Origin: an uncultured Legionella sp.
GTDB taxonomy: Bacteria; Pseudomonadota; Gammaproteobacteria; UBA6186; Azoamicaceae
Direction: 5' to 3'
DNA: 64,000 nt
Assembly: GCA_964522825.1 (NCBI GenBank)
Contig: CAZFXA010000002.1
Location: 23,626 to 87,625, forward strand
The position numbers and the translations under genes are program-made. Shown piece after piece: positions 4,062 through 63,123 of the stretch. Within the stretch, counting starts at the first letter, position 1. Each line of letters begins with the position of its first letter. The notes below the pieces were generated by a model. That model ran no database searches and was not told the origin of the DNA. It was given only the letters and a program-made list of their open reading frames with translations.

Positions 4062-5957
4062 ATGGCTAGTTATTCAGATCGCGATCGACAAGCTGCACAG
4101 ATCAAACTATTAATCGCTTTGGGGCAAGAAAAAGGCTATTTAACCTATGATGATGTAAACGAGTATCTAGGTGATGAGCTGACAGAGCCCGAGCAGACCC
4201 TTGAAGATGTGGTACAGATGCTCGATGAGATGGGTATTACCGTCTATGAAATGACGGCCGATGCCAATGGTTTATTACCCTCGGGTGAAGAATCTGAAGC
4301 GGTTGTGACCGAGGAAGTTGTGGAAGAGGCAGCCCAAGCCGTTGTGGCCATTGAAGGCGATCTAGGACACACCAATGATCCAGTGCGTGTATATATGCGT
4401 GAAATGGGGCGGGTCGGACTCTTAACCCGTCAGGGCGAGCGTGCCATTGCTATGCGCATTGAAGAAGGCGCTCGCGATGTATTATTAACCATCGCGCATT
4501 ATCCACCGCTTTTAGATCTCTTGTTTGATGCCTTTGAACAAGCCGAGCGTAATGAAGTAAAAATTAATGATGTGGTCAGTGGTTTCTTAGATGCGCAGTC
4601 TGCGATTGTCGAAGAACCCTTAGCCGCGGTGGTTTTTGATGAAGCCGCGCCTGTTGATGTTATCAATGATGAAGTTGATGAAGAAGAAGAGACAGAAGCC
4701 ACCGAATTTGATGCGGCCCCCGATTTTGTAGAGGCCAAAAGACGTTTTGAAGAATTAAAGAGCCTTAGTCTGGAGGCCAAAGCTTTATTGAAAAAACGAG
4801 GTCGTACCCATGTACAGACCCAAGCTGCTTTTGATTGTTTAGGTGAAGCACTGGCCTCTTTTAAACTAGCACCTCATTTGTTTGATGCTTTAACGATTGC
4901 CATGCGTGCCATGTTAGAGCAAGTGCGAGCTGTTGAACGGGACATTATGGATCTCTGTATACAACAAGCCAAAATGCCCAGGCCCTGGTTTATTAAACAT
5001 TTTCCGGGTCATGAAACCGATCTGGCATGGACGGAAAATCAGATGGCTTCTAAGCAAGCCTTTGCAAAGCATTTAGGCGATTATCAGGATCAAATACAGG
5101 CCCTGCAGCAATGCTTGAGCGAGTTAGAAAAAAACTTGAATCTGAGTATTCCCGAAATCAAAGAGCTTAATCGCCGTATGTCGATTGGGGAAGGTAGAAC
5201 CCGACGCGCCAAAAAAGAAATGGTCGAAGCCAATTTGCGTTTGGTCATTTCTATTGCCAAAAAATATACCAACCGAGGCTTGCAGTTTTTGGATCTGATC
5301 CAAGAAGGCAATATTGGTTTAATGAAAGCGGTCGATAAATTTGAATACCGTCGCGGTTATAAATTTTCCACGTATGCAACGTGGTGGATCCGTCAGGCCA
5401 TTACACGGTCTATTGCCGATCAAGCGCGTACCATTCGCATTCCAGTGCATATGATTGAAACAATTAACAAGCTGAATCGTATTCAACGTCAAATGTTGCA
5501 GGAAATGGGTCGAGAGCCTACACCCGAAGAATTGGGTAAGCGCATGCAGATGCCCGAAGATAAGATTCGTAAAGTGCTTAAAATTTCTAAAGAACCTATT
5601 TCTACGGAAACACCGATTGGGGACGATGAAGACTCGCATTTGGGAGACTTTATTGAAGATCCGAATGTGCAGTCGCCCATAGAAGCCGCTACGATGGAAG
5701 GCTTACGTGAGGCGACACGACGCATTCTCTCAGGACTTACACCGCGTGAGGCGAAAGTCTTAAAAATGCGCTTTGGGATTGATATGAATACCGATCATAC
5801 CTTGGAAGAAGTGGGCAAGCAGTTTGATGTTACCCGCGAACGCATTCGGCAGATCGAAGCTAAGGCTTTACGTAAGCTGCGACAACCCAGTCGGGCCGAG
5901 CAGCTGAAAAGCTTCCTGGAAGAAGACTCGAAGTCCGGTGGCAGGGCTGAGGGGTAG
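4062..5957 (+). CDS. rpoD: RNA polymerase primary sigma factor RpoD
   Basis: 631 aa. It has an acidic region 1.1, [11 protein letters not shown] (1.2), [32 protein letters not shown] (2.3-2.4/3.0) and [27 protein letters not shown] (4.2). Confidence 0.97.
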
Positions 5958-6068: not shown

Positions 6069-6142
6069 GGGCCCATAGCTCAGTTGGTTAGAGCAGAAGA
6101 CTCATAATCTTTTGGTCCTAGGTTCAAGTCCTAGTGGGCCCA
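6069..6142 (+). tRNA. ileX: tRNA with CAU anticodon, most likely tRNA-Ile2 (lysidine-modified), alternatively elongator tRNA-Met
   Basis: Hand-folded cloverleaf. Acceptor GGGCCCA/TGGGCCC, D arm GCTC-AGTTGGTTA-GAGC, anticodon stem GAAGA/TCTTT with loop CTCATAA (CAT at 6103-6105), variable TGGTC, T arm CTAGG-TTCAAGT-CCTAG, discriminator A. CCA is not encoded. C4-G69 and C5-G68, and the position after rpoD, resemble E. coli ileX. Confidence 0.85.
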
Positions 6143-6172
6143 CCCTAAAACCCCTTAAAAAACAGTACTTTT

Positions 6173-48157: not shown

Positions 48158-49138
48158 ATGTCTTCCTACACCTTAGGCAAAACCCACTATAATTTTCAGA
48201 TGCAGAGCGATTTTTCATCACAATATCCCCACCAAACAGAAGCCGTAAGGGCAGTATTAGCTGCACTTCAAAATCATGATAGAACCCATCTAGTGATGGC
48301 CTGTGGTACGGGCAAAACACGGGTCGCACTCTGGGTGGCCGAGGCACTCAGCTCCAAACGTGTGGTGGTCTTTGTCCCCTCCCTAGCCCTTATCAGCCAG
48401 TTTATTAAAGAATGGCGCAGCGTGACCGTTTGGCAGGATATAGCCTATTTGGCTATTTGTTCAGATGAGACGGTGCGGCATGCAATGGATGATCACGTAG
48501 TGCTCGATCCCAGGGCCTGCGATTTTCCCGTAACCACTGATCCAGTTGTTGTGAGACAGTTTTTAGAACGATCCAGCACGGGTGTGCAGCTAGTTTTTTG
48601 CACCTACCATTCCTCAGGAGTGCTAGCAGAGGGGATGCAAGGCACTGAACATTTTGATATTGGTATTTTTGATGAAGCTCACAAAACAGTCGGCAACCAG
48701 ACCTTCGGTCTAGCTTTGGTAGATGCAGAAGTCCCTATTAAAAAAAGATGTTTGATGACAGCAACTCCCAAGCATTATGATGTGCAGGATAAAGACACTA
48801 CAGGTGAGGCCCGATTGGTCTACTCCATGGATAATGAGGCCGTGTATGGACCTCGAGCCTATACGCTGTCCTTTCGTAAAGCCATTGATTTGGGGTTGAT
48901 TAGCGATTACAAAATCATTATTTCGGTCGTTCATGCCAAGCCCACGGTTGCAGAAGCAAACCCTCTTGAAGCCATGGTGGTGGCCTTAAAAAAGGCCATA
49001 GCCAAAGCGCCCTCTGTCTCAAAAATTATTAGTTTTCACCGAACGATCAAGGAAGCCGAGAATCTCCATCAATATATAGAGACCCATCAAAATCTCAATA
49101 ATTTTAAGCCCTTACATGTGAATGGATTTCTAAAATAA
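48158..49138 (+). CDS. SF2 helicase copy 1, N-terminal lobe fragment (ends at an in-frame TAA)
   Basis: Motif I is VMACGTGKTRVAL, motif II is IFDEAHKTV, motif III is LMTATPK. The TAA at 49136-49138 corresponds to a sense codon (TCT) in copy 2, and the reading frame continues in phase into 49157. Confidence 0.7.
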   Translation: MSSYTLGKTHYNFQMQSDFSSQYPHQTEAVRAVLAALQNHDRTHLVMACGTGKTRVALWVAEALSSKRVVVFVPSLALISQFIKEWRSVTVWQDIAYLAICSDETVRHAMDDHVVLDPRACDFPVTTDPVVVRQFLERSSTGVQLVFCTYHSSGVLAEGMQGTEHFDIGIFDEAHKTVGNQTFGLALVDAEVPIKKRCLMTATPKHYDVQDKDTTGEARLVYSMDNEAVYGPRAYTLSFRKAIDLGLISDYKIIISVVHAKPTVAEANPLEAMVVALKKAIAKAPSVSKIISFHRTIKEAENLHQYIETHQNLNNFKPLHVNGFLK

Positions 49139-49156
49139 ACCCTCAGAAAAAAAATC

Positions 49157-51367
49157 ATGGAAACCTTTAGATCTCATCCAAAAGCGCTGATTACCAATGC
49201 CCGCTGCTTAACCGAGGGGATTGATGTGCCAGCAGTCGATATGGTCGCGTTTTTAAATAAGAAACGCAGTAAAATTGATATTATTCAAGCCATTGGCCGA
49301 TCTTTAAGAAAGGTTCCTGGTAAAGTTTATGGGCATGTGTTTTTACCCTTGTTCGTGGCCGACAATAAAGGTGAAACCTTAGAGCAAGCTGTTGAGCGAG
49401 CCGATTATCGAGAAATATGGGAAGTGATACAGGCGCTTAGTGAACAAGATGAAGCCCTAGAAGCTACCATTCAACAGTTAAAATGCAACAAAGCCAAGAC
49501 GGGAATGCTTGAGGCAGGCTTAGAGAAATATATTGATATTACCAGCCAGACTATCGATGAAGCCTTACACAAGCGCTTACAAAAAATCATTTCGGTTAAG
49601 GTTGTTGACAGGGCTGGTTCATTTTGGAAGGTAATGTATGATCAATTATCTAATTTCAGAAAAGAAAATGGTCATTGTAATGTTCCTCCTGGTGTTTCCG
49701 CTTCCCTATCCACATGGATTTCCAATCAAAGAACAGCCTATAAAGATGCAAAGCTTAATGCTTCGAAAATAGAGCAGCTTAACGCTTTAGGATTTAATTG
49801 GTACGTTCATGATAACCAATGGAAAAAATATTTTGATAAGCTTAAAAATCACAGAGAAAGACATGGTGATTGTTCTAAAATATCTGACAGCCAACTAAAG
49901 TCTTGGGTAAACAATCAAAAAACAGCTTATAAAAAAAACAACCTTGAATCTTGGAAAATTGAAAAGCTTAATAGCTTGGATTTTAATTGGCATCTTTTTC
50001 GCAATCAATGGCAAAAGCGCTTTCAAGAACTGCAAACCTATCAACAAAAATATGGAATTTCTCATATTCCCAGAAAACATCCATTGTCTTTTTGGATGAC
50101 GACTCAAAGGCGCGCCTTAAAAAAAGGCATTCTTGAATCTTGGAAGATAGAAAAACTGAATGCTTTAGGATTGGACTGGGATCCTTTTATTAGTGCATGG
50201 CAAAAAAACCTTAAGCAACTAAAAGATTATAACAAAAGGCATGGGCATTGTAATATTCCTTATGGCATTCATAATTCACTATATGCTTGGATCTTAAATC
50301 AAAAAAAATCTTATAAAAAAGGTAAGCTTGATACTTGGAAGATAGAAAAACTGAATGCTTTAGGGTTTGATTGGAATCCCGTTCCAAATCAATGGCATGA
50401 ATGGTTTAAAAAACTTCAAAATCACAAAAAAGAATTTAAACATTTTGAAATATCCAATGATTCGTCGTTGCGATCTTGGTTAAATAAACAAAGAGTGGCC
50501 CACAGGAAAAATAGGCTTGAACCCTGGAAGATAGAATGCCTGAATGCTTTAGGACTTGATTGGAGCCCAAAACTCAATCAATGGCAAAAGCGTCTTGAAG
50601 AATTACAAGCCTATAAACAAAAATATGGGCATTGTAATGTTTCTTCTGCTATTGCTTGTGCCTTGAATGTTTGGATCTCAGCTCAAAGGACAGCCTATAA
50701 AAAAGTCCAGCTTGATGCTTGGAAAGTAGAGCGTCTTAATGCTTTAGGGTTTGATTGGGATCCTTTACTCAATCAATGGCAAGTGAACTTTGAACAATTA
50801 CAAGCCTATAAACAAAAGCATGGGCATTGTAATGCTTCTTCAGGTGCTTCTTGTTCATTGCGTAAGTGGGTTTTGATGCAAAGAAGAATTTATAAAGAAG
50901 GTCGTTTAAATAATAATAAAATAGTACTGCTCAACAGTTTAGGTTTTGATTGGGATCCCTATGTTAATCAATGGAACCAGCAGTTTGAAAAATTACAATA
51001 TTATAAGAAACAACATGGCCACTGTAATGTTTTTATGGGCATATCTTCTTCATTATGTAGCTGGGTTTGGGATCAAAGAAAATCTTATAAAAAAGGGGAG
51101 CTTGATGCCTGGAAAATAGAGAAACTCAACACTTTAGAATTTGATTGGGACCCAAGGTTAAAGCAATGGCAGACAAACTTTGAACAGCTACAAGCCCACA
51201 AGGAGAAACATGGAGATTGTGAGGTCCCGGATACGACTTCTTCATTGTATAACTGGATTAAAAAGCAAAAAATGGCCTATAAAAAAGGGCTGCTGGAAAA
51301 TCCCAGAGTTGCACTGCTCAATAGTTTGGATTTTGATTGGGGTCCTGGAAATCTTTTAAAAAATTGA
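49157..51367 (+). CDS. SF2 helicase copy 1, C-terminal lobe plus nine HA (helicase-associated) domain repeats
   Basis: Motifs V-VI are ITNARCLTEGIDVPAVDMVAFL and IIQAIGRSLR. These are followed by nine ~64-aa repeats with the pattern W..xF..L..Yk.khGHCNVp....L..Wv..QR..YKkg.L..wKIEkLNaLGFDWdP. Confidence 0.75.
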   Translation: METFRSHPKALITNARCLTEGIDVPAVDMVAFLNKKRSKIDIIQAIGRSLRKVPGKVYGHVFLPLFVADNKGETLEQAVERADYREIWEVIQALSEQDEALEATIQQLKCNKAKTGMLEAGLEKYIDITSQTIDEALHKRLQKIISVKVVDRAGSFWKVMYDQLSNFRKENGHCNVPPGVSASLSTWISNQRTAYKDAKLNASKIEQLNALGFNWYVHDNQWKKYFDKLKNHRERHGDCSKISDSQLKSWVNNQKTAYKKNNLESWKIEKLNSLDFNWHLFRNQWQKRFQELQTYQQKYGISHIPRKHPLSFWMTTQRRALKKGILESWKIEKLNALGLDWDPFISAWQKNLKQLKDYNKRHGHCNIPYGIHNSLYAWILNQKKSYKKGKLDTWKIEKLNALGFDWNPVPNQWHEWFKKLQNHKKEFKHFEISNDSSLRSWLNKQRVAHRKNRLEPWKIECLNALGLDWSPKLNQWQKRLEELQAYKQKYGHCNVSSAIACALNVWISAQRTAYKKVQLDAWKVERLNALGFDWDPLLNQWQVNFEQLQAYKQKHGHCNASSGASCSLRKWVLMQRRIYKEGRLNNNKIVLLNSLGFDWDPYVNQWNQQFEKLQYYKKQHGHCNVFMGISSSLCSWVWDQRKSYKKGELDAWKIEKLNTLEFDWDPRLKQWQTNFEQLQAHKEKHGDCEVPDTTSSLYNWIKKQKMAYKKGLLENPRVALLNSLDFDWGPGNLLKN
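49619..51346 (+). repeat. In-frame array of nine HA-domain repeats (~190-195 nt period)
   Basis: Repeats were delimited by hand from SFWKVMYDQL.. to ..LNSLDFDWGPG. They are divergent at the DNA level and conserved in W/GHC/QR/YK/LN.LGFDW positions. Confidence 0.85.
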
Positions 51368-51380
51368 GATGATAAACTAA

Positions 51381-52151
51381 ATGAATATCCGTACGCTATC
51401 ATTACCTTATACACACCAAATAGAAGCCGTAGAGGCGATACTCACTGCACTTCAAAATCACGATAGAGCCCATCTGGTCATGGCCTGTGGTACCGGTAAA
51501 ACGCGGGTTGCACTCTGGGCAGCCGAGGCACTCAGCCCAAAACGTGTGGTGGTCTTTGTCCCTTCCCTAGCGTTGATTAGCCAATTTATTAAAGAATGGC
51601 GCAGCGTAACCGTATGGCAGGAAATAGCCTACTTGGCTATTTGCTCCGATGAAACGGTGAGGCATGCTATGGATGATCATCTGGTACTCGATCCCACGGC
51701 CTGCGACTTCCCCGTGACCACCGATCCAGTTGTTGTGCGACGGTTTTTAGAAAAACCCAGCACAGGTGTGCAGCTAGTTTTTTGTACCTACCATTCCTCG
51801 GTGGTACTGGCAGAAGGTATGCAAGGCTGCGAACCCTTTGACGTGGGTATTTTTGATGAGGCACATAAAACTGTGGGTAACCAGACTTTCGGGCTAGCCT
51901 TAGAAGATGCCCAACTGCCCATTAAAAAAAGATGTTTAATGACGGCTACCCCAAAGCATTACGATGTTCAAAATACAAGCACTACGGGTGAGTCCCGCTT
52001 GGTGTATTCCATGGATAATGAAGCACTATACGGACCAAGGGCCTATACGCTTTCCTTTCGTAAAGCCATTGATCTAGGGTTGATTTCTGATTACAAAATT
52101 ATTATTTCAGTCGTACATGCCAAACCGACCCCCTCGAAGCCATTGTGGTAG
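51381..52151 (+). pseudogene. SF2 helicase copy 2, N-terminal fragment (frameshifted by a ~16-nt deletion near 52128-52133)
   Basis: Collinear with 48158..48950. I estimate roughly 85-90 percent nt identity by eye over the stretch I aligned. Copy 1 reads AKPTVAEANPLEAMVVAL. Copy 2 reads AKPT then PSKPLW-stop, with LEAIVVAL in another frame. Confidence 0.7.
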
Positions 52152-52921
52152 CTTTAAAGAAAGCGATTGTCAAAGCACCCGCCGTATCAAAAATAATTAG
52201 TTTTCATCGAACGATTAAGGAAGCGGAAAATCTCCATCACTATATTGAGACCCATAAAAATCTCAATGATTTTAAGCCCTTACATGTGAATGGGTTTCTA
52301 AAATCTAGCTTAAGAAAAAAAACCATGGAGACTTTTAGATCTCATCCCAAGGCACTTATTACCAATCCCCGTTGTTTAACCGAAGGGATTGATGTGCCAG
52401 CGGTCGACATGGTGGCTTTTTTAAATAAGAAACGCAGTAAGATTGATATTATTCAGGCCATTGGTCGCCCCCTAAGAAAAGTGCCTGGTAAAGTATATGG
52501 GCATGTGTTTTTACCTTTGTTCGTGGCTGATAACAAAGGAGAAACCTTAGAAGAAGCGGTGGAGCGTGCTGATTACAGAGAAGTATGGGAAGTGATACAG
52601 GCGCTTAGCGAACAAGATACAGCCTTAGAAGCTACTATCCAAGAGTTAAAATGCCACAAAAATAAAATGGGTGTTCTTGATGCCGGTTTAGAAAAGTATA
52701 TTGATATCATAAGTAATCAGGCTATTGATGAGGCCTTGCATAAACGCCTAAAAAAAAATATTTCAGTGAAGGTGATGGATAGAATTGGCTCTTCTTGGGA
52801 TGCGACGTATAACCAATTATTTGCTTTTCAGACAGAACGGGGTCATTGTCGTGTATCTTCTAAACAGCCATTATTTCATTGGATAGATGCTCAAAGAATG
52901 GCCTATAAAAATAGAAGCTGA
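52145..52921 (+). pseudogene. SF2 helicase copy 2, C-terminal lobe with a single truncated HA repeat
   Basis: It is continuous across the position where copy 1 has TAA (..VNGFLKSSLRKKTMETFRSHPKALITNPRCLTEGIDVPAVD..IIQAIGRPLR). It ends after one HA repeat (SSWDATYNQLFAFQTERGHCRVSS..WIDAQRMAYKNRS-stop). Confidence 0.7.
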
Positions 52922-54089
52922 GAAAATTAATTATTTTACCTTATCAAATTACAAAAGCCCTCTGCTGTGATTTGTAATCATGCTGCTCGAAATGTGGCAC
53001 GCTCCCGCATTGAAGAAGATTCCGAAAAACACAAGAAATACCTATAATTAAAGGTAAAAAAGAACATTTCACCCGGAGTGAGTCAGGTGTGCGGGTGATT
53101 AAGGGGGTTGTAGCTTCAGTTTTCTAGAGCGCAGATTTAATAAAGATCATCGGGGGCACGGGGAATTTCAAACCCAAAAATGGGCGGAAACGACTATAAA
53201 TATAGGGATCTCCGTGCAAGCAACACATCCGGTTAGGATGCCTATTTATGACCTGAGATCTGCTTAAAAAATGAGCATATTAAAATGCTTTATTGGCCCG
53301 CTGTTTTTTGCATCAAGCCATTTTTTTCTGCCTTTTTTAGGGCTTTGGACACTTTTTCTTGCGATGTCTGCTGTTCCTTACAATATCTGATGTTGCATAC
53401 AGTGTGCTTGTGGCTTGGTAGAATCAACCGTCGCGAGCGCATGTTAATGCGCAGACGCGACGCAAAGGCTGCCCTTCCGAGGTTCAAAATTTTAAAAAAG
53501 AAAAGCTGTTCTTATTTTCTCACCCTTGGTACACAGTTCAATAAGGTGGCCTGAACTGGAATTTTAAGCCCTTGTACTTTTGCACCATCACCTCAAAAGC
53601 CTGCTTTAACTCCTAAGCTTTAAAGGTCAGTATCGATGATACAACCCAATCTTGCAGAGCTTCTAACACTCGGATCCAATGGTGTTGATGACAAAAATTT
53701 TAGACTTGGATGCTGGACTAAGGCACGGTGCACAGGATCTCGATCGTTCATCCGACACACAATCCATCACTGGCTACTCTGCTCCATGGTTCAAAATGAT
53801 AAAAAAAAGCAGTGGTTATTTTTCCATCCTTGGTGAATAGCTTAGTACGAAGGATTGAACTTGGATTAGATGCCTTCGCTATTTTTAGGATTGATCCTAA
53901 AACACCAACCCACAAACCTATGACAAAAGTTTATCATCCTGATCGGAACTCACCGTGTTGTGTACAGGGATAATCCAAGGGATTCATTTGGCACGGTATA
54001 TTAGCAACTGTGCAGCACAACTCAATCCAGCTTTTAATACCCTATCCAAATAGCAATTTAAAACGAGGCTTTTTTGTTCTGGGAAATCT

Positions 54090-54398
54090 TTAGCCCTGAA
54101 GCTGTGTTTTTGTCTGGTATCGACTTTGATAGGTTTCGGTATCGTGCCCTGGATCTAAAGCATAAGCAATCGATACCCAATTATAAAATACTGGCCTAAC
54201 AGGGATTTTATTGGCTTCCACCACAGGGATTAAGGCCAAAGCCAGGTTTGAATGGATTGTCTCTAAACGAGCCACTTGCCGTTCTATCCTAAAAACATGG
54301 CACTCATATCGCAAGGTTGCAAAGCAAAACAAGAGCACCCATCCTTTTAGAATGTCCATCATGATAGTCAATAGCCTCAAATGCCTTAGCTGTTTCAT
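54090..54398 (-). CDS. Hypothetical small membrane protein
   Basis: 102 aa with an N-terminal hydrophobic segment (ILKGWVLLFCFATL). It is co-directional with 54471..54746. Weak support. Confidence 0.3.
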   Translation of the reverse strand: MKQLRHLRLLTIMMDILKGWVLLFCFATLRYECHVFRIERQVARLETIHSNLALALIPVVEANKIPVRPVFYNWVSIAYALDPGHDTETYQSRYQTKTQLQG

Positions 54399-54470
54399 TG
54401 TTTAAAAGGTATCCTCTTGGGTGACTTCAGCTTTACCATTCTCTAACAATCTTAGGTAAGTATCCAGTAT

Positions 54471-54746
54471 TTAAGAATCAGGATGATTGCATACTAAGTG
54501 TTCTATGGCTTTTCCGATTTTTTGCATCTCAGCCGACGGCCCCTCTGTTGGGGGCAGGTTATTCAAATAAGCTACTGCACCAAAGGCAGTCACGCCTACT
54601 AATAAGAACACAGCTTGTTGTAAAAATAGTTTGGTTAATATTTTTTTTCGTATCATGAACCTGAACAGCTCTACAACCAATATGGCCAACGATATCAGCA
54701 AGACCGTTGATAGTCCCTCTATTATTTTCTCAAAAAAAAATGACAT
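54471..54746 (-). CDS. Hypothetical small membrane protein (two TM)
   Basis: From the internal ATG at 54746, after an AAGGA SD. MSFFFEKIIEGLSTVLLISLAILVVELF...AVFLLVGVTAFGAVAYL. Confidence 0.35.
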   Translation of the reverse strand: MSFFFEKIIEGLSTVLLISLAILVVELFRFMIRKKILTKLFLQQAVFLLVGVTAFGAVAYLNNLPPTEGPSAEMQKIGKAIEHLVCNHPDS

Positions 54747-54977
54747 CCCATTTTCCTTTGGTAGCTGAAAGGATGATCCTAGCACAAACCCTTATTCAAT
54801 AAAATGTTGCCATTTGCCCCTAGCCATTCCATGGATTTTTAATGAAAACAGTCCCCTGGCGACGTGCGATTATAGGCATCTTTTGATCATTGTAACATCA
54901 TCGATCCTGTGTGGCTATTATTGCTTAATTTAGAGGGAAATTGCAGGGTTTTTTGCATAAAAAGGTTCAGAAATTCC

Positions 54978-55006
54978 TTGACGGATCATTCAAATTACCC
55001 TATATT
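54978..55006 (+). promoter_or_regulatory. Near-consensus sigma-70 promoter
   Basis: TTGACG (54978-54983), exactly 17-nt spacer, TATATT (55001-55006). It lies about 235 nt upstream of the 55243 start codon. Confidence 0.45.
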
Positions 55007-55242
55007 TATAGAGTTAATTCAACGGGCGCGGAGCGTGAGATCGTCTAAATCCCACACTCCGACATAACCTAATCGGATAAGGATTAAGCCATGCTTGCCA
55101 CGCGTACTATCGTATCAAAGATCATTCTTTCCTGCTATTTTTTCTACTGGGCCTGTCAGGGCTTTAGCCCTCCTTTGCGTTCTTAAATCCCAATTTTTTG
55201 TTTTTTTACGGAATAAGGTTTGAACGCTTAAGGAGTCCTATC

Positions 55243-55728
55243 ATGTCCAAATTATCCATAGATAATGCCCTCAATGTTTTAGGTGTCTCTAAGATGCCTG
55301 CCAACCCACAAGCCCTCGATGCGGCTTATCAATCAGCTTTAGCAGCCTACCAATCTACCCAGGGTCCTGCCTCAGAGCCTGTTCATCAGCTCTTAAAGGC
55401 AGCACACCTCAGCCTTCAACATGCCGGAGATGCTGCCCAAAAGGCTTGTGCTTCCGATCCGGGCTATGCCGCTCGTTTTGATCAGGCTTTAAGCTGGATC
55501 ACCACTACCCCTTTGTCCTTTGAAATCGTAGGTGCTTGGTTGTGGGTAAATGGTACACGAGGTGCCAGCCTGCCTCTTGAATCCGAGCTACGAGTCCATG
55601 GTTTTGAATGGGCCTCTAAAAAAGCCTGCTGGTTTTTAAAACCCCAAGCCGCTACCCATTCCGATCCCCAACGTGAGTCCTGGGATTTAGAGCGCATCCG
55701 ATCGGCTTATGCCCATCGTCCTGTCTAA
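55243..55728 (+). CDS. Hypothetical MGE-type protein with J-domain-like N-terminus lacking HPD
   Basis: 161 aa from ATG 55243, after an AAGGAG SD. N-terminus: IDNALNVLGVSKMPANPQALDAAYQSALAAY (J-like helices, no HPD). C-terminus: FEIVGAWLWVNGTRGASLPLESELRVHGFEWASKKACWFLKP. Confidence 0.55.
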   Translation: MSKLSIDNALNVLGVSKMPANPQALDAAYQSALAAYQSTQGPASEPVHQLLKAAHLSLQHAGDAAQKACASDPGYAARFDQALSWITTTPLSFEIVGAWLWVNGTRGASLPLESELRVHGFEWASKKACWFLKPQAATHSDPQRESWDLERIRSAYAHRPV

Positions 55729-55761: not shown

Positions 55762-56715
55762 ATGCACAGAGTAATCGATCACACACACTGTTCCCTGCAG
55801 CGCTATCAGCAAGAGATGGGCAATATTCCCTTGCTCAGCGAACAGCAAGCAATAACGATCGCCCAAGCTATTGAGGAAAATAGCCTGTCGCTGAATGCCC
55901 TAGAAGCTTCCCTAGCCGTCCCATCGAGCGTCTTAGCTATGGATGCGCTTAAACGTCAGATTTGTGTGGCTAAGTACAAAGTCCAGAAGGCCAAACAACA
56001 GATGATTGAAGCGAACCTTCGATGGGTCATCAGTATTGCCAAACGATACAAGGGTCGGGGAGTACCCTTAGCCGATTTAATCCAAGAAGGTAATCTGGGT
56101 TTAATGAAAGCTGTCGATAAATTCGATTATCGACTGGGTTATAAATTCTCCACCTATGCGATCTGGTGGATCCGTGAAGCAATGGTGCAGGCAATTGATG
56201 AGGCATCTACGATCCGCATTCCCTCTCATATGAGGAAGTCTATGAGGCGGTTCGCGAAGCATCAGCAACTACTGGCACAAGAACTCGGCAAAGAACCCAG
56301 TACCCAGGAGATGGTTCAACATTTGGGATTGCCTGAGGATCACATCTGCGAAATGCTTCAACTCAAAGAACAACCCCTTAGGTCAAAGCCTCAGGCTGAG
56401 TGTTTAGATCTACACATCCATGCTACAGAGCCATCGCCCTTCAATAGGGTATTGCTAGATGCCTTAAAAACAATCATGCCGCAGATCTTAGGCACACTCA
56501 AGCCGCGTGATGCGCAGATTTTAAGCATGCGTTTTGGATTGGATAACGCAGAGGAGCACACGCTGGAAGCCATTGGCGATGTCTTGGGACTGACCCGAGA
56601 ACGAGTGCGCCAAATTGAAAGTGCGGCCCTTAAAAAACTCAAGCTTTCAGCCTATGCCAAGACCTTAGAAGGCTTCGTAGATAAGGTTCAAAAACAGGCG
56701 CATCGTGCGGCCTAA
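55762..56715 (+). CDS. Sigma-70 family factor, group-2/RpoS-sized paralog (317 aa)
   Basis: Regions 2-4 are present: [99 protein letters not shown]. Confidence 0.85.
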
Positions 56716-56743
56716 AAAGCATTGTAGGGATAGGAGGTACATC

Positions 56744-58114
56744 ATGCGCAGTCAGGATGATCACGAAAACGCGAATGTTGAAAGATCTTTAGAACAGCCT
56801 TTGCAAGCATCTGTGGATCCGGTCAACGCCTATATGCAAGCCATGAGTCGTTTTAAATTGCTGAACCGCCAGGATGAAAGGGTCCTTGGAGAACGTATTG
56901 AAAAGGGTCTTCAAGCAGTCTTAGCGACCCTGGCACACTATCCACCCACGCTTGATCCGCTATTGGAGGCTTTCCAAAAAGTGCAGCGTTCTGAAATGGC
57001 CTTCAACGAGGTGATCCATGGCTTTATAGAGCCGTCTCCTCTTGCAGCCACGAGCCCTACAAAAACCAATGCGGTCGTAACAACGACCCTAAAGCATTCT
57101 GACTGGGTAGAAGCTAACAATCGATTTGAAAATCTGGCTATTTTAAAAATACAGGTTGAACAATGTCTAGCCAAATGGGGTCGGGTACATGCTAGAACCC
57201 AGGGAGCATTTTTAGTATTAGCCAACGCCTTAAGTTGTTTTAGAGTATGCAGCCCCTTATTAAAGACCATGATCCTTATTTTGCGTAAGGCATTGTCTTC
57301 GGAACAGTCCCTTGAGAAACAGGCATTGCGTCATCAGCTCTGGTGTGCAGAATCTGAAGTAGTTCGTGCTAAAGATGAATTGATTAACGCTAATCTTCGT
57401 TTGGTCATTTCTATTGCGAAGAAATACCAGAATCAAGGTCTAGCCTTCTTAGATTTAATCCAAGAGGGCAACTTAGGTTTGATGAAGGCGGTTGATAAAT
57501 TTGATTATCAAAGAGGCTATAAATTCTCGACCTATGCAACCTGGTGGATCCGCCAGGCGATCACCCGTGCCCTTGCCGATCAAGGTCGAGAAATCCGTGT
57601 GCCGGTACATGTGATTGAAGTGATGCAAAAATTAAGGAAAGTCCACAATAAAATCGTACAGGAAACGGGCTTCGAGCCCACAGTCGAAGCCTTAGCCAAG
57701 CACAGCCATACACCCCTGCAAAAGGTCCATAAAGTACTGGGGATTTTTGATCCTATTTCTATGGAAACGCCGATAAGACATGAGGAATCCGCTTTGTTGT
57801 TAGAAGATGTGATAGTCGATTCGACGCTGCAATCGCCCCTGGCGTTGGTAAGCCAAACGGAATTACAAAAAACCCTGCATAAAGTTTTAGCAGAACTGCC
57901 TGCCCGTGAAGCCATGGTGCTCAGAATGCGTTTTGGTATTGATACAGACACAGAACAGACCCTAGAGGAAATCGGTCGCACCCTGGGTCTGACCCGAGAA
58001 CGGGTGAGGCAAATTGAAGGGCAGGCCTTAGCCAAGCTCAGACTACCTCGTCGGGCTAAGGTATTGAAAGCGTTCTTAGAAGATAAGTCCTCAGAGGTTC
58101 AAAAGAAAACATAA
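56744..58114 (+). CDS. RpoD-like sigma-70 paralog lacking region 1.1 (456 aa)
   Basis: From ATG 56744, after a [40 protein letters not shown] (1.2), [18 protein letters not shown] (as in host Rpo[13 protein letters not shown]), [59 protein letters not shown]. Confidence 0.88.
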
Positions 58115-58150
58115 GGCTTTAGACAACCATTGCCAAGTGGCAATGAATCA

Positions 58151-58175
58151 GGTGTGGCGGCGCACTCGCCATGGG
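58151..58175 (+). promoter_or_regulatory. Conserved 5' leader hairpin, copy A (upstream of 58206 gene)
   Basis: GGTGTGGCGGCGCACTCGCCATGGG, with stem TGGCG/CGCCA and a 7-nt loop. It shares GTGTGGCG..CGCCA(C/T)G(T)GG with 59359-59397. Confidence 0.4.
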
Positions 58176-58205
58176 ATATCAGTGAAAAATCTGAAGGAGT
58201 CATGT

Positions 58206-58916
58206 ATGCAAAAGATTAGGACCTCAGAATACAAATGGTTTTTGAAATGTTATGCCTACGATCATAGCTGTTTAGCCGAAGACTATGCAGGGATGCAAAA
58301 AGTGATAACCTTATTTGACTCCTTCATCAATCCTGGTGAGACACCGTTATTTTATCAGCTTAAAACCATCAGAAAAATGATTGAGAAAAGTCAGCATGTC
58401 AACCATGGTGCACAAACCAGCATCCATCATCGCTTAGAAGGTTTAAAGATGAAACAAAAAGGAACTATTTTTAAGCGTTTGAGGACATTTATGTTCTCTT
58501 CCGAGGTTGAGCTGGGTCTTTGTTATTTGATTTTACAGGAGGAAGAACAGGTTCATACTTTTTTGAAGGCGCAACACACCAAGCTTAAAGACCTTTTAAA
58601 GCAGATGTATGAGCCTGCCTTATTAAAACATTTATCCAGAGTGGATGTAGGCCGTGTTCAAAGCCTAGAAATTTTTCTTAGACGAGCACGTGCCGTGAAC
58701 AAAGAGGTTATAAGAGACTGCCATAATATGCGTAAAGTGTTGAAAGAATATGCACCCCATGACATACCGACCACAAGCTTTCAGAGCTTAATCCAGCATT
58801 GTAATAGCTGGGGTTCTCAAGTCAATACGATCCCCTTGCGATCTAAAAGTGTGTTCAGGCGGGTATCCGAACAATGCTCTGCTCTGTGGGATGTTTGTAT
58901 TTTTTTATGGGATTAA
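58206..58916 (+). CDS. Hypothetical protein, unknown family copy 1 (236 aa)
   Basis: From ATG 58206, after a GAAGGAG SD. MQKIRTSEYKWFLKCYAYDHSCLAEDYAGMQ...VHTFLKAQHTKLKDLLKQM. It is paralogous to 59430..60104. Confidence 0.65.
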   Translation: MQKIRTSEYKWFLKCYAYDHSCLAEDYAGMQKVITLFDSFINPGETPLFYQLKTIRKMIEKSQHVNHGAQTSIHHRLEGLKMKQKGTIFKRLRTFMFSSEVELGLCYLILQEEEQVHTFLKAQHTKLKDLLKQMYEPALLKHLSRVDVGRVQSLEIFLRRARAVNKEVIRDCHNMRKVLKEYAPHDIPTTSFQSLIQHCNSWGSQVNTIPLRSKSVFRRVSEQCSALWDVCIFLWD

Positions 58917-59358: not shown

Positions 59359-59397
59359 AGTGTGGCGACGGGTGCGATCAACACCCCCGCCACGTGG
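59359..59397 (+). promoter_or_regulatory. Conserved 5' leader hairpin, copy B (upstream of 59430 gene)
   Basis: GTGGCG(62-67)/CGCCAC(88-93) plus the inner stem GGGTG/CACCC, with loop CGATCAA. The position is equivalent to copy A, about 30-50 nt before the AAGGAG SD. Confidence 0.4.
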
Positions 59398-59429
59398 ACA
59401 TTAGCAACAAGTCTTAAGGAGAGTTACTC

Positions 59430-60104
59430 ATGTCAACGATTAAGATATCAGATTACATCTTTTTTTTAAAGACCTGTTATTTTGGACATCAGCTTTTAGA
59501 AAAATGTTATAAAATGCAGCAGAATTATCTTGCCCTACTATTGGAAGATAAGCCGCCAGCTAGTCTTTTAGATTCTTTGCAAGTCTTCAATGCTTTAATA
59601 GACCAAGCGCTATCATCGATGAATCCATGCTATCTCAGCTTCTTAGTGGATCAGATGGTTGAGCAGCAGGCTAGTGCTCCGAGAACCTTTATCCCGCTCT
59701 GGGATTACACCTTGGTCTTGAACGATCAGCATAACCTGCATACTTTTTTAAGTCAGAAAAATATTGAAATCAAAAAATGTCTTCAAAGAATAGAAATCTT
59801 TTATCAATACAATCCTCTTGCAGCAGGTGTTGTTTTTGCGGGGCAACTCAAGAAATTGCAAGGGATTGCACAATTTATTCATCAAAAAATGCTGATGGTC
59901 TTAGGGAACATCCAAGCGTTTTTAGACAAAACACCGCTCAAAAGTGACGCGGGGAGTGTTGTGGCTTTCGAAGCTTTGATGGGCCATTTAAAGGGCCCTA
60001 ACGCTTTCAATCAGGCACAGGGTTCAAAGAATGATGGAGCCTTGAAAAGGACCTTTAAAGGCTATGGTAATCGTCCACCCTTATCGAAGAGGAATGATGA
60101 CTAA
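59430..60104 (+). CDS. Hypothetical protein, unknown family copy 4 (224 aa)
   Basis: MSTIKISDYIFFLKTCYFGHQLLEKCYKMQQ...LHTFLSQKNIEIKKCLQRI. It is paralogous to 58206..58916. A TAATG overlap couples it to the LysR gene. Confidence 0.65.
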   Translation: MSTIKISDYIFFLKTCYFGHQLLEKCYKMQQNYLALLLEDKPPASLLDSLQVFNALIDQALSSMNPCYLSFLVDQMVEQQASAPRTFIPLWDYTLVLNDQHNLHTFLSQKNIEIKKCLQRIEIFYQYNPLAAGVVFAGQLKKLQGIAQFIHQKMLMVLGNIQAFLDKTPLKSDAGSVVAFEALMGHLKGPNAFNQAQGSKNDGALKRTFKGYGNRPPLSKRNDD

Positions 60105-61045
60105 TGCCTGTCTCGGTTTTTATTCCACAATTGAAGCCGTGTTTTTGGCATAAAATTTATTGTTTTTATTACGTAGCTTATTTTAAAAGTTACTCTAAGG
60201 CTGCAATAGCACTCAATACCACCCGACCTTCGCTTAGCCGGGCTGTGAAAGCCTTGGAGCATCGCCTTAATACCACACTATTAGTACGAAGTACCCGCCA
60301 CGTGGCCTTAACCGAAGAGGGTCTACGTATTTTAGGGGAGGCTAAGTATTTGTTAGGCACGCTCAAGAGAATAGAGAGTTTTCATCAGAGAAAGGATCTT
60401 GTCAGTCACGAATCCATCTGCCTTTTTGTGCCCGAACCTCTTTTAACGGATTATCTGATGGCTCCATTGCTAGGTTTTCAGCATACGTACCCTGAGCTCA
60501 CTGTGAAAATCCATCTGACGAATAGCTTAGAACAAGAACCACCTTCCACACACTTGGTTCATATTCGTTTCGGGTTTGAGCAAGGGTCCGAATGGGTTCA
60601 AAAACCCCTATTGCATTTTGAAGGGGGTTTATATGCCAGTGCAGGCTATTTGCAAAAATGGGGACCACTACGGATGCTTGAAGATTTATCCGAACATCGA
60701 TTGTTGCTCTTAAACGCAACAATCCCAAGCATTTTTGAAGACATGAATTGGCATGGCTCGCTTTTGAAACAGCATTTAGGTCAAGAGGCTGCGCGCTGTG
60801 TCATCCATACCCCTGAGCATTTGATCAAAATGGCTGAAGCAGATTTTGGGATTATCGCTTGGATTAAGGATCATCCCTATTTGAATAACCATGGTTTAAC
60901 GGAAATTTTAGAGGATGTTACGGCACTATACGGTCCTCAGAGGCAAGCTTATTTTGCCTGTGAAGCCTCGAGCTTTGAATCAGAAGGTGTACAAGCCCTC
61001 TATTTACATTTAAGTCGGCATGCCCGGGGTTCTTCAGGGGAATAA
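60104..61045 (+). CDS. LysR-family transcriptional regulator
   Basis: 313 aa. N-terminal wHTH: YFKSYSKAAIALNTTRPSLSRAVKALEHRLNTTLLVRSTRHVALTEEG. It has a C-terminal substrate-binding-like domain. Confidence 0.85.
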   Translation: MPVSVFIPQLKPCFWHKIYCFYYVAYFKSYSKAAIALNTTRPSLSRAVKALEHRLNTTLLVRSTRHVALTEEGLRILGEAKYLLGTLKRIESFHQRKDLVSHESICLFVPEPLLTDYLMAPLLGFQHTYPELTVKIHLTNSLEQEPPSTHLVHIRFGFEQGSEWVQKPLLHFEGGLYASAGYLQKWGPLRMLEDLSEHRLLLLNATIPSIFEDMNWHGSLLKQHLGQEAARCVIHTPEHLIKMAEADFGIIAWIKDHPYLNNHGLTEILEDVTALYGPQRQAYFACEASSFESEGVQALYLHLSRHARGSSGE

Positions 61046-61130: not shown

Positions 61131-61508
61131 ATGGATCAACAGGATAAGAAGAAACAAGAGGCTTTGTGGACACGCAAAGTCATGGATTTACACCAGGTAA
61201 TAGAACGCGCACTTTCTAGGCAATGGACTCTGATCGATGATCGGGATTGCCGTGATAAATCTCCTGTTAACAGAGCTTTAAAGAAGGTGAAGCAATTAAA
61301 TACTTTGGTGAATGATGGATTGATTGGCTCTCAACACTACCAAAAAAATCTTAAAATATTAATGAAATATATCGAAGAACTAGCATTGTATGATTTTGTT
61401 TCAGAAGAGGTGCTTCAAACATTTGGATCTGAAGCAGGTGTTTTTTCTGGTGAGGATACTATGGCTTCAACCTTTGCATGGATACAGAGTCAAGGCATTA
61501 ATCTTTAA
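61131..61508 (+). CDS. Hypothetical protein (125 aa)
   Basis: From ATG 61131, after an AGGAGG SD. MDQQDKKKQEALWTRKVMDLHQVIERALSRQWTLIDD... Helical. Weakly similar in layout to the next ORF. Confidence 0.5.
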   Translation: MDQQDKKKQEALWTRKVMDLHQVIERALSRQWTLIDDRDCRDKSPVNRALKKVKQLNTLVNDGLIGSQHYQKNLKILMKYIEELALYDFVSEEVLQTFGSEAGVFSGEDTMASTFAWIQSQGINL

Positions 61509-61535: not shown

Positions 61536-61886
61536 ATGCGTGATCAGGATGAACAGTGGATCTATGAAATCATTGAAGCCCATGGCTGCCTATCTAAGGA
61601 GATTTCTCGGCAATTAAGCTTAATACCCAGGGCCTTTAAGCAACGTAGAGCTTTGCTAAGAATTTTACTGAATGAACTAGATAGGATGGATAGCATGGTA
61701 GATTGTATTGGACCTTCTTTAGAAGATTATCAATGGGTTTGTGCAGAATTTTTTGCATGGTTAGACCATGAGCATTTGCGGTTAGGGCCTTTGATGATAG
61801 AAAAAATTCAGAAGAATTTTGGTGCAGATCATTTTTTTGTCAAGGAAATCCTGCCAAAAATCAAAAAAGGGGGGTATTCATGTTAA
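61536..61886 (+). CDS. Hypothetical protein (116 aa)
   Basis: MRDQDEQWIYEIIEAHGCLSKEISRQLSLIPRAF... An SD-like GAGGA lies upstream. No motif recognised. Confidence 0.5.
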   Translation: MRDQDEQWIYEIIEAHGCLSKEISRQLSLIPRAFKQRRALLRILLNELDRMDSMVDCIGPSLEDYQWVCAEFFAWLDHEHLRLGPLMIEKIQKNFGADHFFVKEILPKIKKGGYSC

Positions 61887-62019
61887 GATGAGCCAGGACC
61901 CGGTCATCCGATATGGTAGGTGGGGACTTTGATCGGGGTCCTGGAAGACTATAGACTATAAGGAAGGGTTCTATTTTGAAAGGACTGGGGATTTACACGT
62001 AAATTGGGGAGAACAGAGC

Positions 62020-63123
62020 ATGCGACCACCTTTTCATCCTTTTCACCAGCCCACGGTTGATCCGCTGTTTAAGCACCTGATGGGGCATGAGATCGTTCGC
62101 AATAGTTTGTTAACTGCTATTTTAAAAGAGCCCGTGAGCTATTCCCAGCTCATCGATGGAGCACTAAACCCTTTTCCTGCCTTTAAGGACTTACGTTCTT
62201 TGATTAACCGTGAGGAACTCTCTGAGCTCATGGATCAAATAGGCTCTCTTTCACTCAAAGACCTGGCCGATCGGAAGAATGGTCCTTTGGTGAACAAGGC
62301 CTTAGCTTTTATGCACGAACTTGCCCCGCTCTATACAGAGCTTAGCTCAGCCTTGCCAAGCGCTGAGCGGCAGACCCAGTTAGATATCGTTTGTGAGACC
62401 AGCTATGGACTGGTGACTGTCGAGATGCAAGTATCACCACAAAATTATTGGGATGTTCGGATTTTAGATCATGTTTGTGGGCTCTTTCATCGACAATTCT
62501 CCAGGGGTTTTAAATGGAGTTCACTGGAAACCGATCCGGATATTGCTAACAAGGTTAGTCGTGTGGTGGGTATTAGTCTTTTTGCCAAAGCCCCTATGTA
62601 TCCTGAAAAAGTTCAGGCTTTGTTGCCCTGGTATACGGCTGAAGGCTGGGACGTGGATGAACTGAGTCGTCATTACCGTTTATTAGAGGAGAAGCATCCT
62701 CGAAAAGTGAGACCTGGCATCGAGTTTTTTGATTTTAACCTCGAAGCATTCATTTTTTTACATGCCAATGGGGGTCTTGAAGACTATCCCAAAGACTTAT
62801 GTGCTTGGTTAGATTTTTTTGCCAGAGCTCATACGAAAACCCTTGCAGATATTGAACAGGGGGATTATTCAGAGCCTATTAAGAAGGCCTATGACATTAT
62901 TAAAGATCTGCCCCCCAACATCGAAGAAATGTATGCTGAGAGTCTCATCAGACAGGCGGATATCTCTCATTTTGTACAAGGGACTAAAGAACACGCTATG
63001 GCAGAGGGAGAAACCAAAAGTAAAATGATTATTGCCAAAAATCTTATGAACAAGGGGATGGCACCCGATGAAATAGCAGCGATGACGGGTCTGTCTGTTA
63101 CTGAGATTGAGCGCTTAAAATAG
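62020..63123 (+). CDS. Rpn/YhgA-like PD-(D/E)xK nuclease family putative transposase
   Basis: 367 aa. N-terminus: VDPLFKHLMGHEIVRNSLLTAILKE. Core: QLDIVCETSYGLVTVEMQV (D..E.Q). Typical C-terminal tail: AEGETKSKMIIAKNLMNKGMAPDEIAAMTGLSVTEIERLK. Confidence 0.7.
   Translation: MRPPFHPFHQPTVDPLFKHLMGHEIVRNSLLTAILKEPVSYSQLIDGALNPFPAFKDLRSLINREELSELMDQIGSLSLKDLADRKNGPLVNKALAFMHELAPLYTELSSALPSAERQTQLDIVCETSYGLVTVEMQVSPQNYWDVRILDHVCGLFHRQFSRGFKWSSLETDPDIANKVSRVVGISLFAKAPMYPEKVQALLPWYTAEGWDVDELSRHYRLLEEKHPRKVRPGIEFFDFNLEAFIFLHANGGLEDYPKDLCAWLDFFARAHTKTLADIEQGDYSEPIKKAYDIIKDLPPNIEEMYAESLIRQADISHFVQGTKEHAMAEGETKSKMIIAKNLMNKGMAPDEIAAMTGLSVTEIERLK

Follow-up and report, generated by a model that had tools for sequence, protein, structure and literature searches.

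The genome of an uncultured Legionella sp. (GenBank assembly GCA_964522825.1), from a gammaproteobacterial lineage with small genomes, contains two adjacent genes, here called sigA1 and sigA2, that encode complete sigma-70-family factors and are found in accessory, mobile DNA. Both factors appear to derive from the primary sigma factor RpoD and lack its region 1.1. They were analysed in a stretch of 64,000 nucleotides of contig CAZFXA010000002.1 (positions 23,626 to 87,625), referred to below as the window, in which the housekeeping rpoD gene and an integrative and conjugative element (ICE) are also present. The genes are intact and under purifying selection, and they are the second and third genes of a conserved cassette rather than an isolated tandem. 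It is considered slightly more probable than the contrary that sigA1 and sigA2 are functional, element-borne sigma factors that head a mobile regulatory cassette and act as a positive-feedback switch for element genes.

Gene integrity and domain composition

The first gene, sigA1 (55762..56715, plus strand), encodes a 317-amino-acid (aa) protein with a weak region 1.2 and regions 2, 3 and 4, and the second, sigA2 (56744..58114, plus strand), encodes an RpoD-derived factor of 456 aa, counted from the ATG, with regions 1.2, 2, 3 and 4. Exactly 28 nt (56716-56743) separate the TAA stop of sigA1 from the ATG of sigA2, and strong Shine-Dalgarno sequences are located ahead of both genes (AAGGAG for sigA1 and AGGAGG for sigA2). 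Open reading frames (ORFs), spacing and Shine-Dalgarno sequences agree with a preliminary description of this DNA, which had reported two complete sigma genes 28 nt apart, the second with a Shine-Dalgarno-preceded ATG. In both proteins, the matches to regions 2, 3 and 4 are above the Pfam gathering scores, which places them in the sigma-70 family. For sigA1, Sigma70_r2 was matched at 2e-21 (76 bits), r3 at 3.1e-7 (30.8 bits) and r4 at 3.6e-17 (62.1 bits), with a weak region 1.2 match of 20.8 bits versus the 22-bit Pfam cutoff. For sigA2, the matches were r1_2 at 2.9e-8, Sigma70_ner at 1.9e-7, r2 at 9e-24 (83.5 bits), r3 at 3e-10 (40.4 bits) and r4 at 9e-18 (64 bits). Since each protein holds regions 2, 3 and 4, the pair is not of the split-sigma type (Sig7-8).

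Region 1.1 (PF03979, Sigma70_r1_1) was not matched in sigA1, sigA2 or any member of their families, and every RpoD match has PF03979. The sigA2 protein has just 24 aa before region 1.2, and because its frame can be extended upstream by no more than 13 codons, which overlap sigA1, no hidden region 1.1 is present, as had been supposed from the gene start. The shorter non-conserved region that had also been noted is borne out: about half of it is kept in sigA2, and the acidic loop and the second half are gone. In sigA1, both region 1.1 and the non-conserved region are absent. The two proteins have an isoelectric point (pI) of 9.1 each, and both families are basic, with median pI values of 9.3 and 8.9 versus 5.2 for RpoDs. 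The reference for these comparisons, housekeeping rpoD (4062..5957, plus strand), encodes 631 aa including region 1.1 in the usual dnaG-rpoD arrangement; its end is 49.8 kb from the start of sigA1, close to the 50 kb first reported. With regions 1.2 to 4.2, no region 1.1 and primary-type -10/-35 contacts, sigA2 has all the features of a group 2 primary-like sigma factor. The same features are seen in sigA1 with a weak region 1.2 and with positions 437, 440, 441 and 458 altered.

Descent from RpoD

The RpoD equivalog model NF004208 (cutoff 555 bits) gave 802.4 bits for the housekeeping copy, 447.4 for sigA2 and 295.7 for sigA1, so that neither of the pair scores as a group 1 RpoD. The RpoS models TIGR02394 and NF004207 (cutoffs 378.7 and 394 bits) were also missed, with 251 and 243 bits for sigA2 and 217 and 211 bits for sigA1. 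The best Protein Data Bank (PDB) matches of sigA1 were RpoD at 231 bits versus RpoS at 160 bits. The phylogeny against RpoD, RpoS and group 2 sigmas that the preliminary description had proposed was built by maximum likelihood from 48 sigmas; the split (support 98/95) that separates the host RpoS and a second RpoS-like sigma from RpoD leaves both families with the RpoDs. Each family forms a monophyletic group (100/100) on a long stem, and the tree does not resolve their branching order among the RpoDs. In a second tree, which included the non-conserved-region columns, sigA2 falls within the gammaproteobacterial RpoDs, in a basal polytomy with the RpoD clade of the host lineage. Derivatives of 340 aa without the non-conserved region nest within the sigA2 clade, and one of these is found on contig C1 of the window's own genome.

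At the protein level, the identity between sigA2 and the host RpoD is 56% across regions 2-4 and drops to 34% across region 1.2 and the first half of the non-conserved region; sigA1 and sigA2 share 46% identity. Taken together, these comparisons indicate that sigA1 and sigA2 derive from RpoD and not from RpoS, and that they are structurally group-2-like. The presence of the host-lineage AHYPP motif in sigA2 is consistent with the capture of rpoD from this lineage, without being proof of it.

Residues involved in promoter contacts

Residues were read from a MAFFT alignment with Salmonella RpoD as the ruler (here the E. coli number is the Salmonella number minus 2), together with the PDB alignment. 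A 17-residue segment of region 2 in sigA2 is identical to that of the host RpoD, and the AHYPP..LL.AF segment is held in common. The core-binding segment of region 2.1/2.2 is retained throughout the sigA2 family, as are the melting and -10 residues Y425, Y430, W433, W434, Q437, T440 and R441, the region 3.0 residues H455 and E458, and R584, E585 and R588 of region 4.2. The strong likeness to RpoD first noticed in region 1.2, the AHYPP..LL.AF segment, region 2 and region 4.2 therefore holds. By established sigma-70 structure-function knowledge, the sigA2 family should read ordinary -35/-10 promoters.

The core-binding segment and the region 4.2 sequence TRERVRQIE are retained in the sigA1 family as well, and Y425, Y430, W433, W434 and region 4.2 are retained in most of its members. 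Three changes that the preliminary description does not mention are family-wide in sigA1: R at position 441 is replaced by Q (E in one member), E458 is replaced by K, and the region 3.2 finger has lost 6-7 residues together with its acidic character. The lysine at position 458 corresponds to RpoS K173, a residue linked to a preference for -13C. In the window's copy, the positions of E. coli Q437, T440 and R441 in region 2.4 are E, V and Q. The E/V substitutions at 437 and 440 had led to the prediction of an altered -12 reading. The substitutions are present, but E437 occurs in just 4 of the 9 family members, the rest having Q or R, so that an altered -12 reading through Q437E/T440V would be a feature of this copy and its nearest relatives only.

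Distribution and selection

The families were searched for in a collection of 5.8 billion proteins. Members of the sigA2 family fall into about 10 clusters (56-92% identity), to which 3 short derivatives are added, and those of the sigA1 family into 8 clusters (56-91% identity); past these members, the matches drop to the generic RpoD level. All named members of both families come from metagenome-assembled genomes (MAGs) labelled 'Gammaproteobacteria bacterium'. Among 13 other genomes of the same genus, the sigA1-sigA2 pair is found in one (G004), which has two more sigA2-type genes, in place of the universal single-copy presence of an RpoD. All 13 congeners have a separate full-length rpoD and one or two RpoS-like genes, and the host itself has RpoD, RpoS, a second RpoS-like sigma and RpoH. 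Because the pair occurs in only one of the congeners and the host has its own RpoS, sigA1 and sigA2 are accessory and are not the organism's RpoS, in line with their initial description as accessory primary-like sigmas. On a broader scale, RpoD-like genes were detected on 254 of 72,556 plasmid records (E <= 1e-30), many of which are chromids or misfiled chromosomes.

The second, divergent RpoS-like sigma of the host (contig C21, locus L006, 1348-2229, minus strand) has 293 aa and the region 2.4 sequence YAGFWIQQSIEESIMRQ. Its gene adjoins rmuC, and comparable second RpoS-like matches are found in most genomes of the genus.

The ratio of nonsynonymous to synonymous substitution (dN/dS) was calculated pairwise among the window and loci L017, L014, L009 and L012, giving 10 ortholog pairs per gene. 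Values were 0.21-0.30 for sigA1 and 0.22-0.37 for sigA2, in the same range as those of three other cassette genes (U1, LysR and U6), and the reading frames of both sigma genes are intact in every copy compared. Both genes are thus under purifying selection.

The conserved cassette

The cassette is approximately 10 kb long, with the order U1, sigA1, sigA2, U2, small ORFs, U4, LysR regulator, U5/U6 and Rpn nuclease, and this full order is syntenic in at least six other contigs (L009/L010/L011, L012/L013, L014 and L017-L019). The first operon gene, U1 (55243..55728, plus strand), encodes a 161-aa protein to which no function was assigned. The paralogous proteins U2 (58137-58916) and U4 (59430-60104) are encoded on the plus strand with decayed material in between; a 216-aa gene that L009 has in this stretch is missing from the window. 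These are followed on the plus strand by the LysR-type transcription regulator (60104..61045), recognized by profile matches, the paralogous small helical-bundle proteins U5 (61131-61508) and U6 (61536-61886), and an Rpn-family PD-(D/E)XK nuclease or putative transposase (62020..63123), which is the last conserved gene and has its own conserved sigma-70-like promoter at 61976-62005. On the left, the cassette has a gene-poor arm (52930..54977) with a conserved non-coding block. Homology to the window begins at approximately 52,930-52,950 in L012 and L017, and in L009 it does not extend past the Rpn gene. A GC-rich hairpin (GTGGCGACGGGTG..CACCCCCGCCAC) at 59370-59429, just ahead of the U4 Shine-Dalgarno sequence, is invariant in four cassette copies. 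The cassette begins right after the second of two tandem superfamily 2 (SF2) helicase genes with HA-domain repeats (48158-52921), each of which is split into two ORFs and is probably a pseudogene.

Shorter versions of the cassette have also been observed, and in every variant a LysR regulator, a sigA2-type sigma and a U6-like protein are present. In the minimal form, seen in L015/L016, a single sigA2-type sigma that carries the N-terminal peptide of U1 is accompanied by LysR, a U6-like protein and the Rpn nuclease. The window's own genome holds a third, degenerate and reduced copy near the end of contig C1 (L002, 1324-3402): its sigA2-type sigma has 340 aa and no non-conserved region, its LysR gene encodes 207 aa and is apparently truncated, and a U5/U6-like ORF is present. 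The peptide MSKLSIDN.LNVLG starts whichever operon gene is first, U1, sigA1-type or sigA2-type (window 55243-55290, L002 1324-1370, L015 3914-3960, L012 9022-9045), and deletions have evidently fused this same 5' end to different sigma genes.

The flanks of the cassette vary and include P-type ATPases with a cation-efflux gene, SNF2 and SWIM genes, ankyrin proteins, IS3 and group II intron reverse transcriptases, and one MAG has three cassette copies. The cassette is mosaic, since two given loci do not match equally well along its length: LysR of the window is 92% identical to that of L009, for example, but the sigmas only approximately 73%.

The other cassette proteins add no mechanism. Searches of these proteins with Pfam and NCBIfam identified only the LysR regulator and the Rpn nuclease, and U1 gave no match. 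The AlphaFold2 (AF2) model of U6 is a five-helix bundle with a predicted local distance difference test (pLDDT) score of 88, and its family has 39 representatives with no annotation. An anti-sigma role for U6 was rejected, the model having no significant PDB match and only generic helical bundles among its hits. U1 was likewise rejected as a J-domain protein or sigma partner (low-confidence AF2 model, pLDDT 59.7, without a PDB match; J-domain hits at E ~2, not significant).

Promoter and leader of the operon

The operon promoter P1 (54978..55006, plus strand) consists of TTGACG (54978-54983), a 17-nt spacer and TATATT (55001-55006), with an A/T-rich tract upstream. It is present in all 7 cassette copies compared, in which the -35 hexamer and -13C, -12T, -11A, -10T and -7T are invariant. 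Given the invariant -13C of P1 and the K458 found throughout the sigA1 family, P1 may be read by sigA1 or by the host RpoS, and for sigA2 it could serve as a consensus promoter of the ordinary kind. Reading by either sigA1 or sigA2 would give positive feedback. A listing of intergenic TTGAC sequences and a consensus scan for a shared unusual promoter returned nothing that recurs beyond P1, and the number of promoters was that expected by chance.

Between P1 and U1 there is a conserved 5' leader of approximately 230 nt (55013..55242, plus strand), which is more conserved than the synonymous sites of the genes (dS ~1, window vs L012). It contains a hairpin, a small ORF and an anti-Shine-Dalgarno sequence. 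The 5' hairpin (~55030-55060) shows compensatory changes in 7 of 10 pairs; its score was reached by 0 of 500 shuffles and slid controls were low. The small ORF (55091-55186; 31 codons; consensus M..SILSKFIL..CYFFYW.CQGFSPPLRS) is open in 7 of 7 loci, and every indel is in frame. Within its S-P-P-L codons, the invariant CCTCCTT (55169-55175) is predicted to pair with the U1 Shine-Dalgarno sequence AAGGAG (55230-55235). This arrangement points to translational attenuation or coupling, with the leader as a candidate attenuator containing a Pro-Pro stall site. A CsrA-type regulator was considered for the GGA motifs of the leader and dropped, as none was found by a six-frame regular-expression search. 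No Rfam family was matched in the 52-64 kb interval.

The non-coding block in the left arm (53070-53300) has 89% mean column identity over five loci, including the distant L012, far above that of the neighbouring genes, and it may be an RNA gene or a recombination site. It contains a string resembling a tRNA 5' half at 53103-53175, and the 14-mer CCCTATATTTATAG of the P1 -10 region recurs in it, without any mismatch, on the minus strand (53193-53206). The tRNA-like string was discarded as a candidate attR, as it does not match the tRNA-Met 3' end, and pairing of the block (53.07-53.30 kb) with the leader was discarded because the duplex energies were no better than those of shuffled sequences.

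Link to the integrative and conjugative element

The window contains the parts expected of an ICE, that is, an integrase at a tRNA gene, a relaxase, a coupling protein and a mating-pair formation set. Its left end is formed by tRNA-Met(CAU) (6069-6144, plus strand) and a tyrosine integrase (6173-7357, minus strand). The F-type tra genes span 16223-41577 (TraE/K/B/C/U/TrbC/N/F/H/G and the coupling protein TraD), and the relaxase-helicase, a TrwC-type TraI of 1830 aa, ends at 41577. The tra genes are followed by cargo, including an ankyrin protein and disrupted helicases, and then by the cassette. A second copy of the tRNA-Met 3' end (GTTCAAGTCCTAGTGGGCCCACC) was not found in the 64-kb window, so that the right boundary of the ICE is past position 64,000 or degenerate.

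The relation of the cassette to element ends can be seen in L015 and L016. Less than approximately 350 nt past the Rpn gene of these loci, there is a tRNA 3' fragment (..GGGTTCGAGTCCCATCGTTCGCCCCA; L015 8650-8697, L016 9245-9292), followed by the stop-proximal end of an integrase homologous to that of the window (66% nucleotide identity). The fragment marks an att junction, and the related element to which this junction belongs uses another tRNA. This order is expected of joined element ends or of tandem elements, and it locates the cassette at the terminus of such elements that is distal to the integrase. The placement of the pair in mobile DNA by the preliminary description is supported by these junctions and by the synteny of the cassette within different flanks.

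Proposed mechanism and alternative explanations

A mechanism can be proposed in which both genes arose from a gammaproteobacterial rpoD: each would have lost region 1.1, and the non-conserved region would have gone in part from sigA2 and completely from sigA1. The genes would be co-transcribed within a cassette located at the integrase-distal end of integrating elements, here the F-type ICE at tRNA-Met. Transcription would start at a near-consensus -13C promoter that the host RpoD or RpoS could read, and would then pass a post-transcriptional gate, in which the leader is structured and the 3' end of the translated 31-codon ORF (..SPPLRS) serves as an anti-Shine-Dalgarno sequence masking the ribosome-binding site of the first gene. 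The sigA1 and sigA2 proteins would bind the host core RNA polymerase. Reading ordinary -35/-10 promoters, its own included, sigA2 would be a primary-sigma surrogate, and controls that depend on region 1.1 or the acidic loop, both of which it lacks, should not reach it. The -35 reading would be retained in sigA1, which should prefer a modified -10 or -13C context such as P1 because of its RpoS-like K458, Q441 and truncated finger. Together with the LysR regulator, the two sigmas would form a positive-feedback switch that activates element genes, and control of the ICE or its neighbours by the pair, as first suggested, is plausible. A more specific form, in which the cassette is a self-contained two-sigma bistable switch with a leader attenuator, whose Pro-Pro stall site on the anti-Shine-Dalgarno sequence would sense the translational state of the intracellular host, and with a -13C promoter re-read by sigA1 and sigA2, which would make the element independent of host sigma control, is thought to be unlikely. 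If true, it would represent an undescribed capture of a primary sigma gene by an ICE lineage.

Element-encoded sigmas offer mobile DNA a direct route to take over host transcription, and the well-studied examples are phage sigmas, SigN and the split Sig7-8 of Tn916. Here, the host RNA polymerase appears to be supplied by a mobile element with promoter-reading subunits that the element itself encodes. The pair includes a natural primary-type sigma without region 1.1 and with a partial non-conserved region, which is useful for testing the roles of those parts. The cassette is also a candidate for autoregulatory control of conjugative elements in uncultured intracellular bacteria, in which host sigma repertoires are small, and the compact promoter, leader-peptide and anti-Shine-Dalgarno device can be tested with reporters. 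Text searches of the literature found no account of an ICE-associated pair of complete RpoD-derived sigmas without region 1.1, which is not proof of absence.

Several points weigh against a functional positive-feedback switch for element genes. Expression, core binding and promoter use of sigA1 and sigA2 in this uncultured organism are predictions. The ICE membership of the window's cassette is deduced from L015/L016, with attR lying beyond the window or degenerate. In L018 the cassette adjoins cargo for metal resistance, and the nearest 10 kb contain no tra genes; the cassette may serve several element types or itself be cargo. No common non-canonical promoter motif was found upstream of the tra or cargo genes, and no regulon can be named. 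Also, a dN/dS of approximately 0.25 is relaxed compared with the level expected of a housekeeping sigma.

Some of these points would fit cargo regulators, in which case the pair would mainly reprogram the host chromosome, for example a stage or stress programme or the Ank/Sel1 effector genes nearby, rather than excision and transfer. The unchanged sigma-70 specificity of sigA2 would allow it to read host promoters, a tra-specific promoter motif was not found, the cassette lies amid cargo, with ankyrin/CaaX, Sel1 and metal-resistance genes flanking different copies, and extra RpoD-like sigmas recur in this bacterial family. However, the position of the cassette is fixed by att and int in L015/L016, its self-contained architecture of promoter, leader and LysR is more conserved than its flanks, and there are several copies per genome, which track elements and not the host lineage. 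Cargo regulation is seen as possible but rather unlikely. A role in defence is improbable; sigA2 would then be a back-up primary sigma devoid of the parts on which phage or host inhibitors act (region 1.1 and the acidic loop), or the cassette would be an MZA-like anti-phage system with a sigma-70 protein at its centre. The NCBIfam and PADLOC MzaA models do match both proteins, a genuine MzaA-type sigma is found beside an AIPR gene on a conjugative Burkholderia plasmid, and the element has the Rpn nuclease and a nearby STAND NTPase. Membership in an MZA system was nevertheless rejected: the MzaA scores of 362 and 274 bits fall well short of the 800-bit cutoff, and even the housekeeping RpoD reaches 440, the matches are confined to the generic sigma part, and the partners MzaB-E (MutL, Z1 and AIPR) are absent from the 10 cassette proteins, for which PADLOC otherwise gave only a marginal ZorC tail match.

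The two remaining explanations concern the sigma proteins themselves. Even less probable than defence is that sigA1 is a competitive, poorly initiating sigma that sequesters polymerase or is toxic like SigN of pBS32, leaving sigA2 as the sole productive sigma. The dN/dS of sigA1 is the same as that of sigA2, the key region 2 aromatic residues (Y425, Y430, W433 and W434) and region 4.2 are retained in most family members, and alternative sigmas with short fingers are generally known to initiate normally. In favour of such a factor are the truncated region 3.2, R441Q and E458K, and the precedents of toxic element-borne sigmas, SigN (PMC10601692) and Sig7-8 (bioRxiv 10.64898/2026.10.01.756105). 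Finally, the genes could be decaying, functionless rpoD duplicates or ordinary core RpoS-type genes, which is very improbable and is contradicted by the selection and distribution data. Decay and deletions do occur inside the cassette, and the reduced copy in the window's own genome has a truncated LysR gene, but the sigma frames are intact in every copy with dN/dS of 0.21-0.37, and the Shine-Dalgarno sequences and promoter are conserved. A core RpoS function is opposed by the RpoS and second RpoS-like gene of the host and by the lack of the pair in 12 of 13 congeners.

Comparison with known systems

In structure, the closest known proteins are the group 2 sigmas, such as RpoS of Gammaproteobacteria, mycobacterial SigB and cyanobacterial SigB-E, which also have regions 1.2-4.2 without a full region 1.1, are dispensable and have recognition determinants near those of the primary sigma. 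The RpoS-type lysine of sigA1 (E458/K173) adds to this likeness. Unlike these factors, sigA1 and sigA2 fall on the RpoD side of the tree and not with RpoS, sigA2 keeps half of the proteobacterial non-conserved region, a group 1 hallmark, and both proteins are basic (pI ~9) and encoded in tandem on mobile DNA.

Another RpoD-like protein on mobile DNA is MzaA (NF041931; PDLC02203), in which the C-terminal part resembles RpoD (region 1.2, a stretch like the non-conserved region, and regions 2-4). MzaA has approximately 300 extra N-terminal residues and MutL/Z1/AIPR partners, both of which are absent from the sigA1/sigA2 cassette. A contrasting case is L020 on plasmid p2 of Burkholderia sp. THE68 (85694-87931), where a 745-aa sigma-70-family gene is located by AIPR, HNH, helicase and ATP-binding genes; this locus on a conjugative plasmid is an MZA-type defence locus.

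Sigma factors encoded by elements have been described in Firmicutes. The Sig7-8 sigma of Tn916 is split, autoactivating and required for excision (bioRxiv 10.64898/2026.10.01.756105). As in the window, two adjacent element sigma genes are present in the regulatory region of an ICE, and the autoactivating positive control of element genes that is proposed here would be shared. In contrast, Sig7-8 is a two-subunit, small factor like those of the extracytoplasmic function (ECF) type, and sigA1 and sigA2 are each complete, RpoD-derived and from Gammaproteobacteria. SigN (ZpdN) of the Bacillus subtilis plasmid pBS32 is also an element-encoded sigma-70-family factor with its own, autoregulated promoter, and it competes for the host core polymerase (PMC6751061, PMC10601692). 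It belongs to an unrelated family and host, and is linked to DNA-damage-induced death.

The arrangement of the cassette can also be likened to that of ICEclc. ICEclc is controlled by RpoS and by TciR, a LysR regulator encoded distally (mfsR-marR-tciR) (PMC4063739, PMC7423338, PMC3395598). In both cases, a LysR-type activator is found at the integrase-distal end of a tRNA-integrated ICE, and in ICEclc the sigma level gates activation. ICEclc uses the host RpoS and BisR/BisDC, whereas the element described here carries its own sigma genes.

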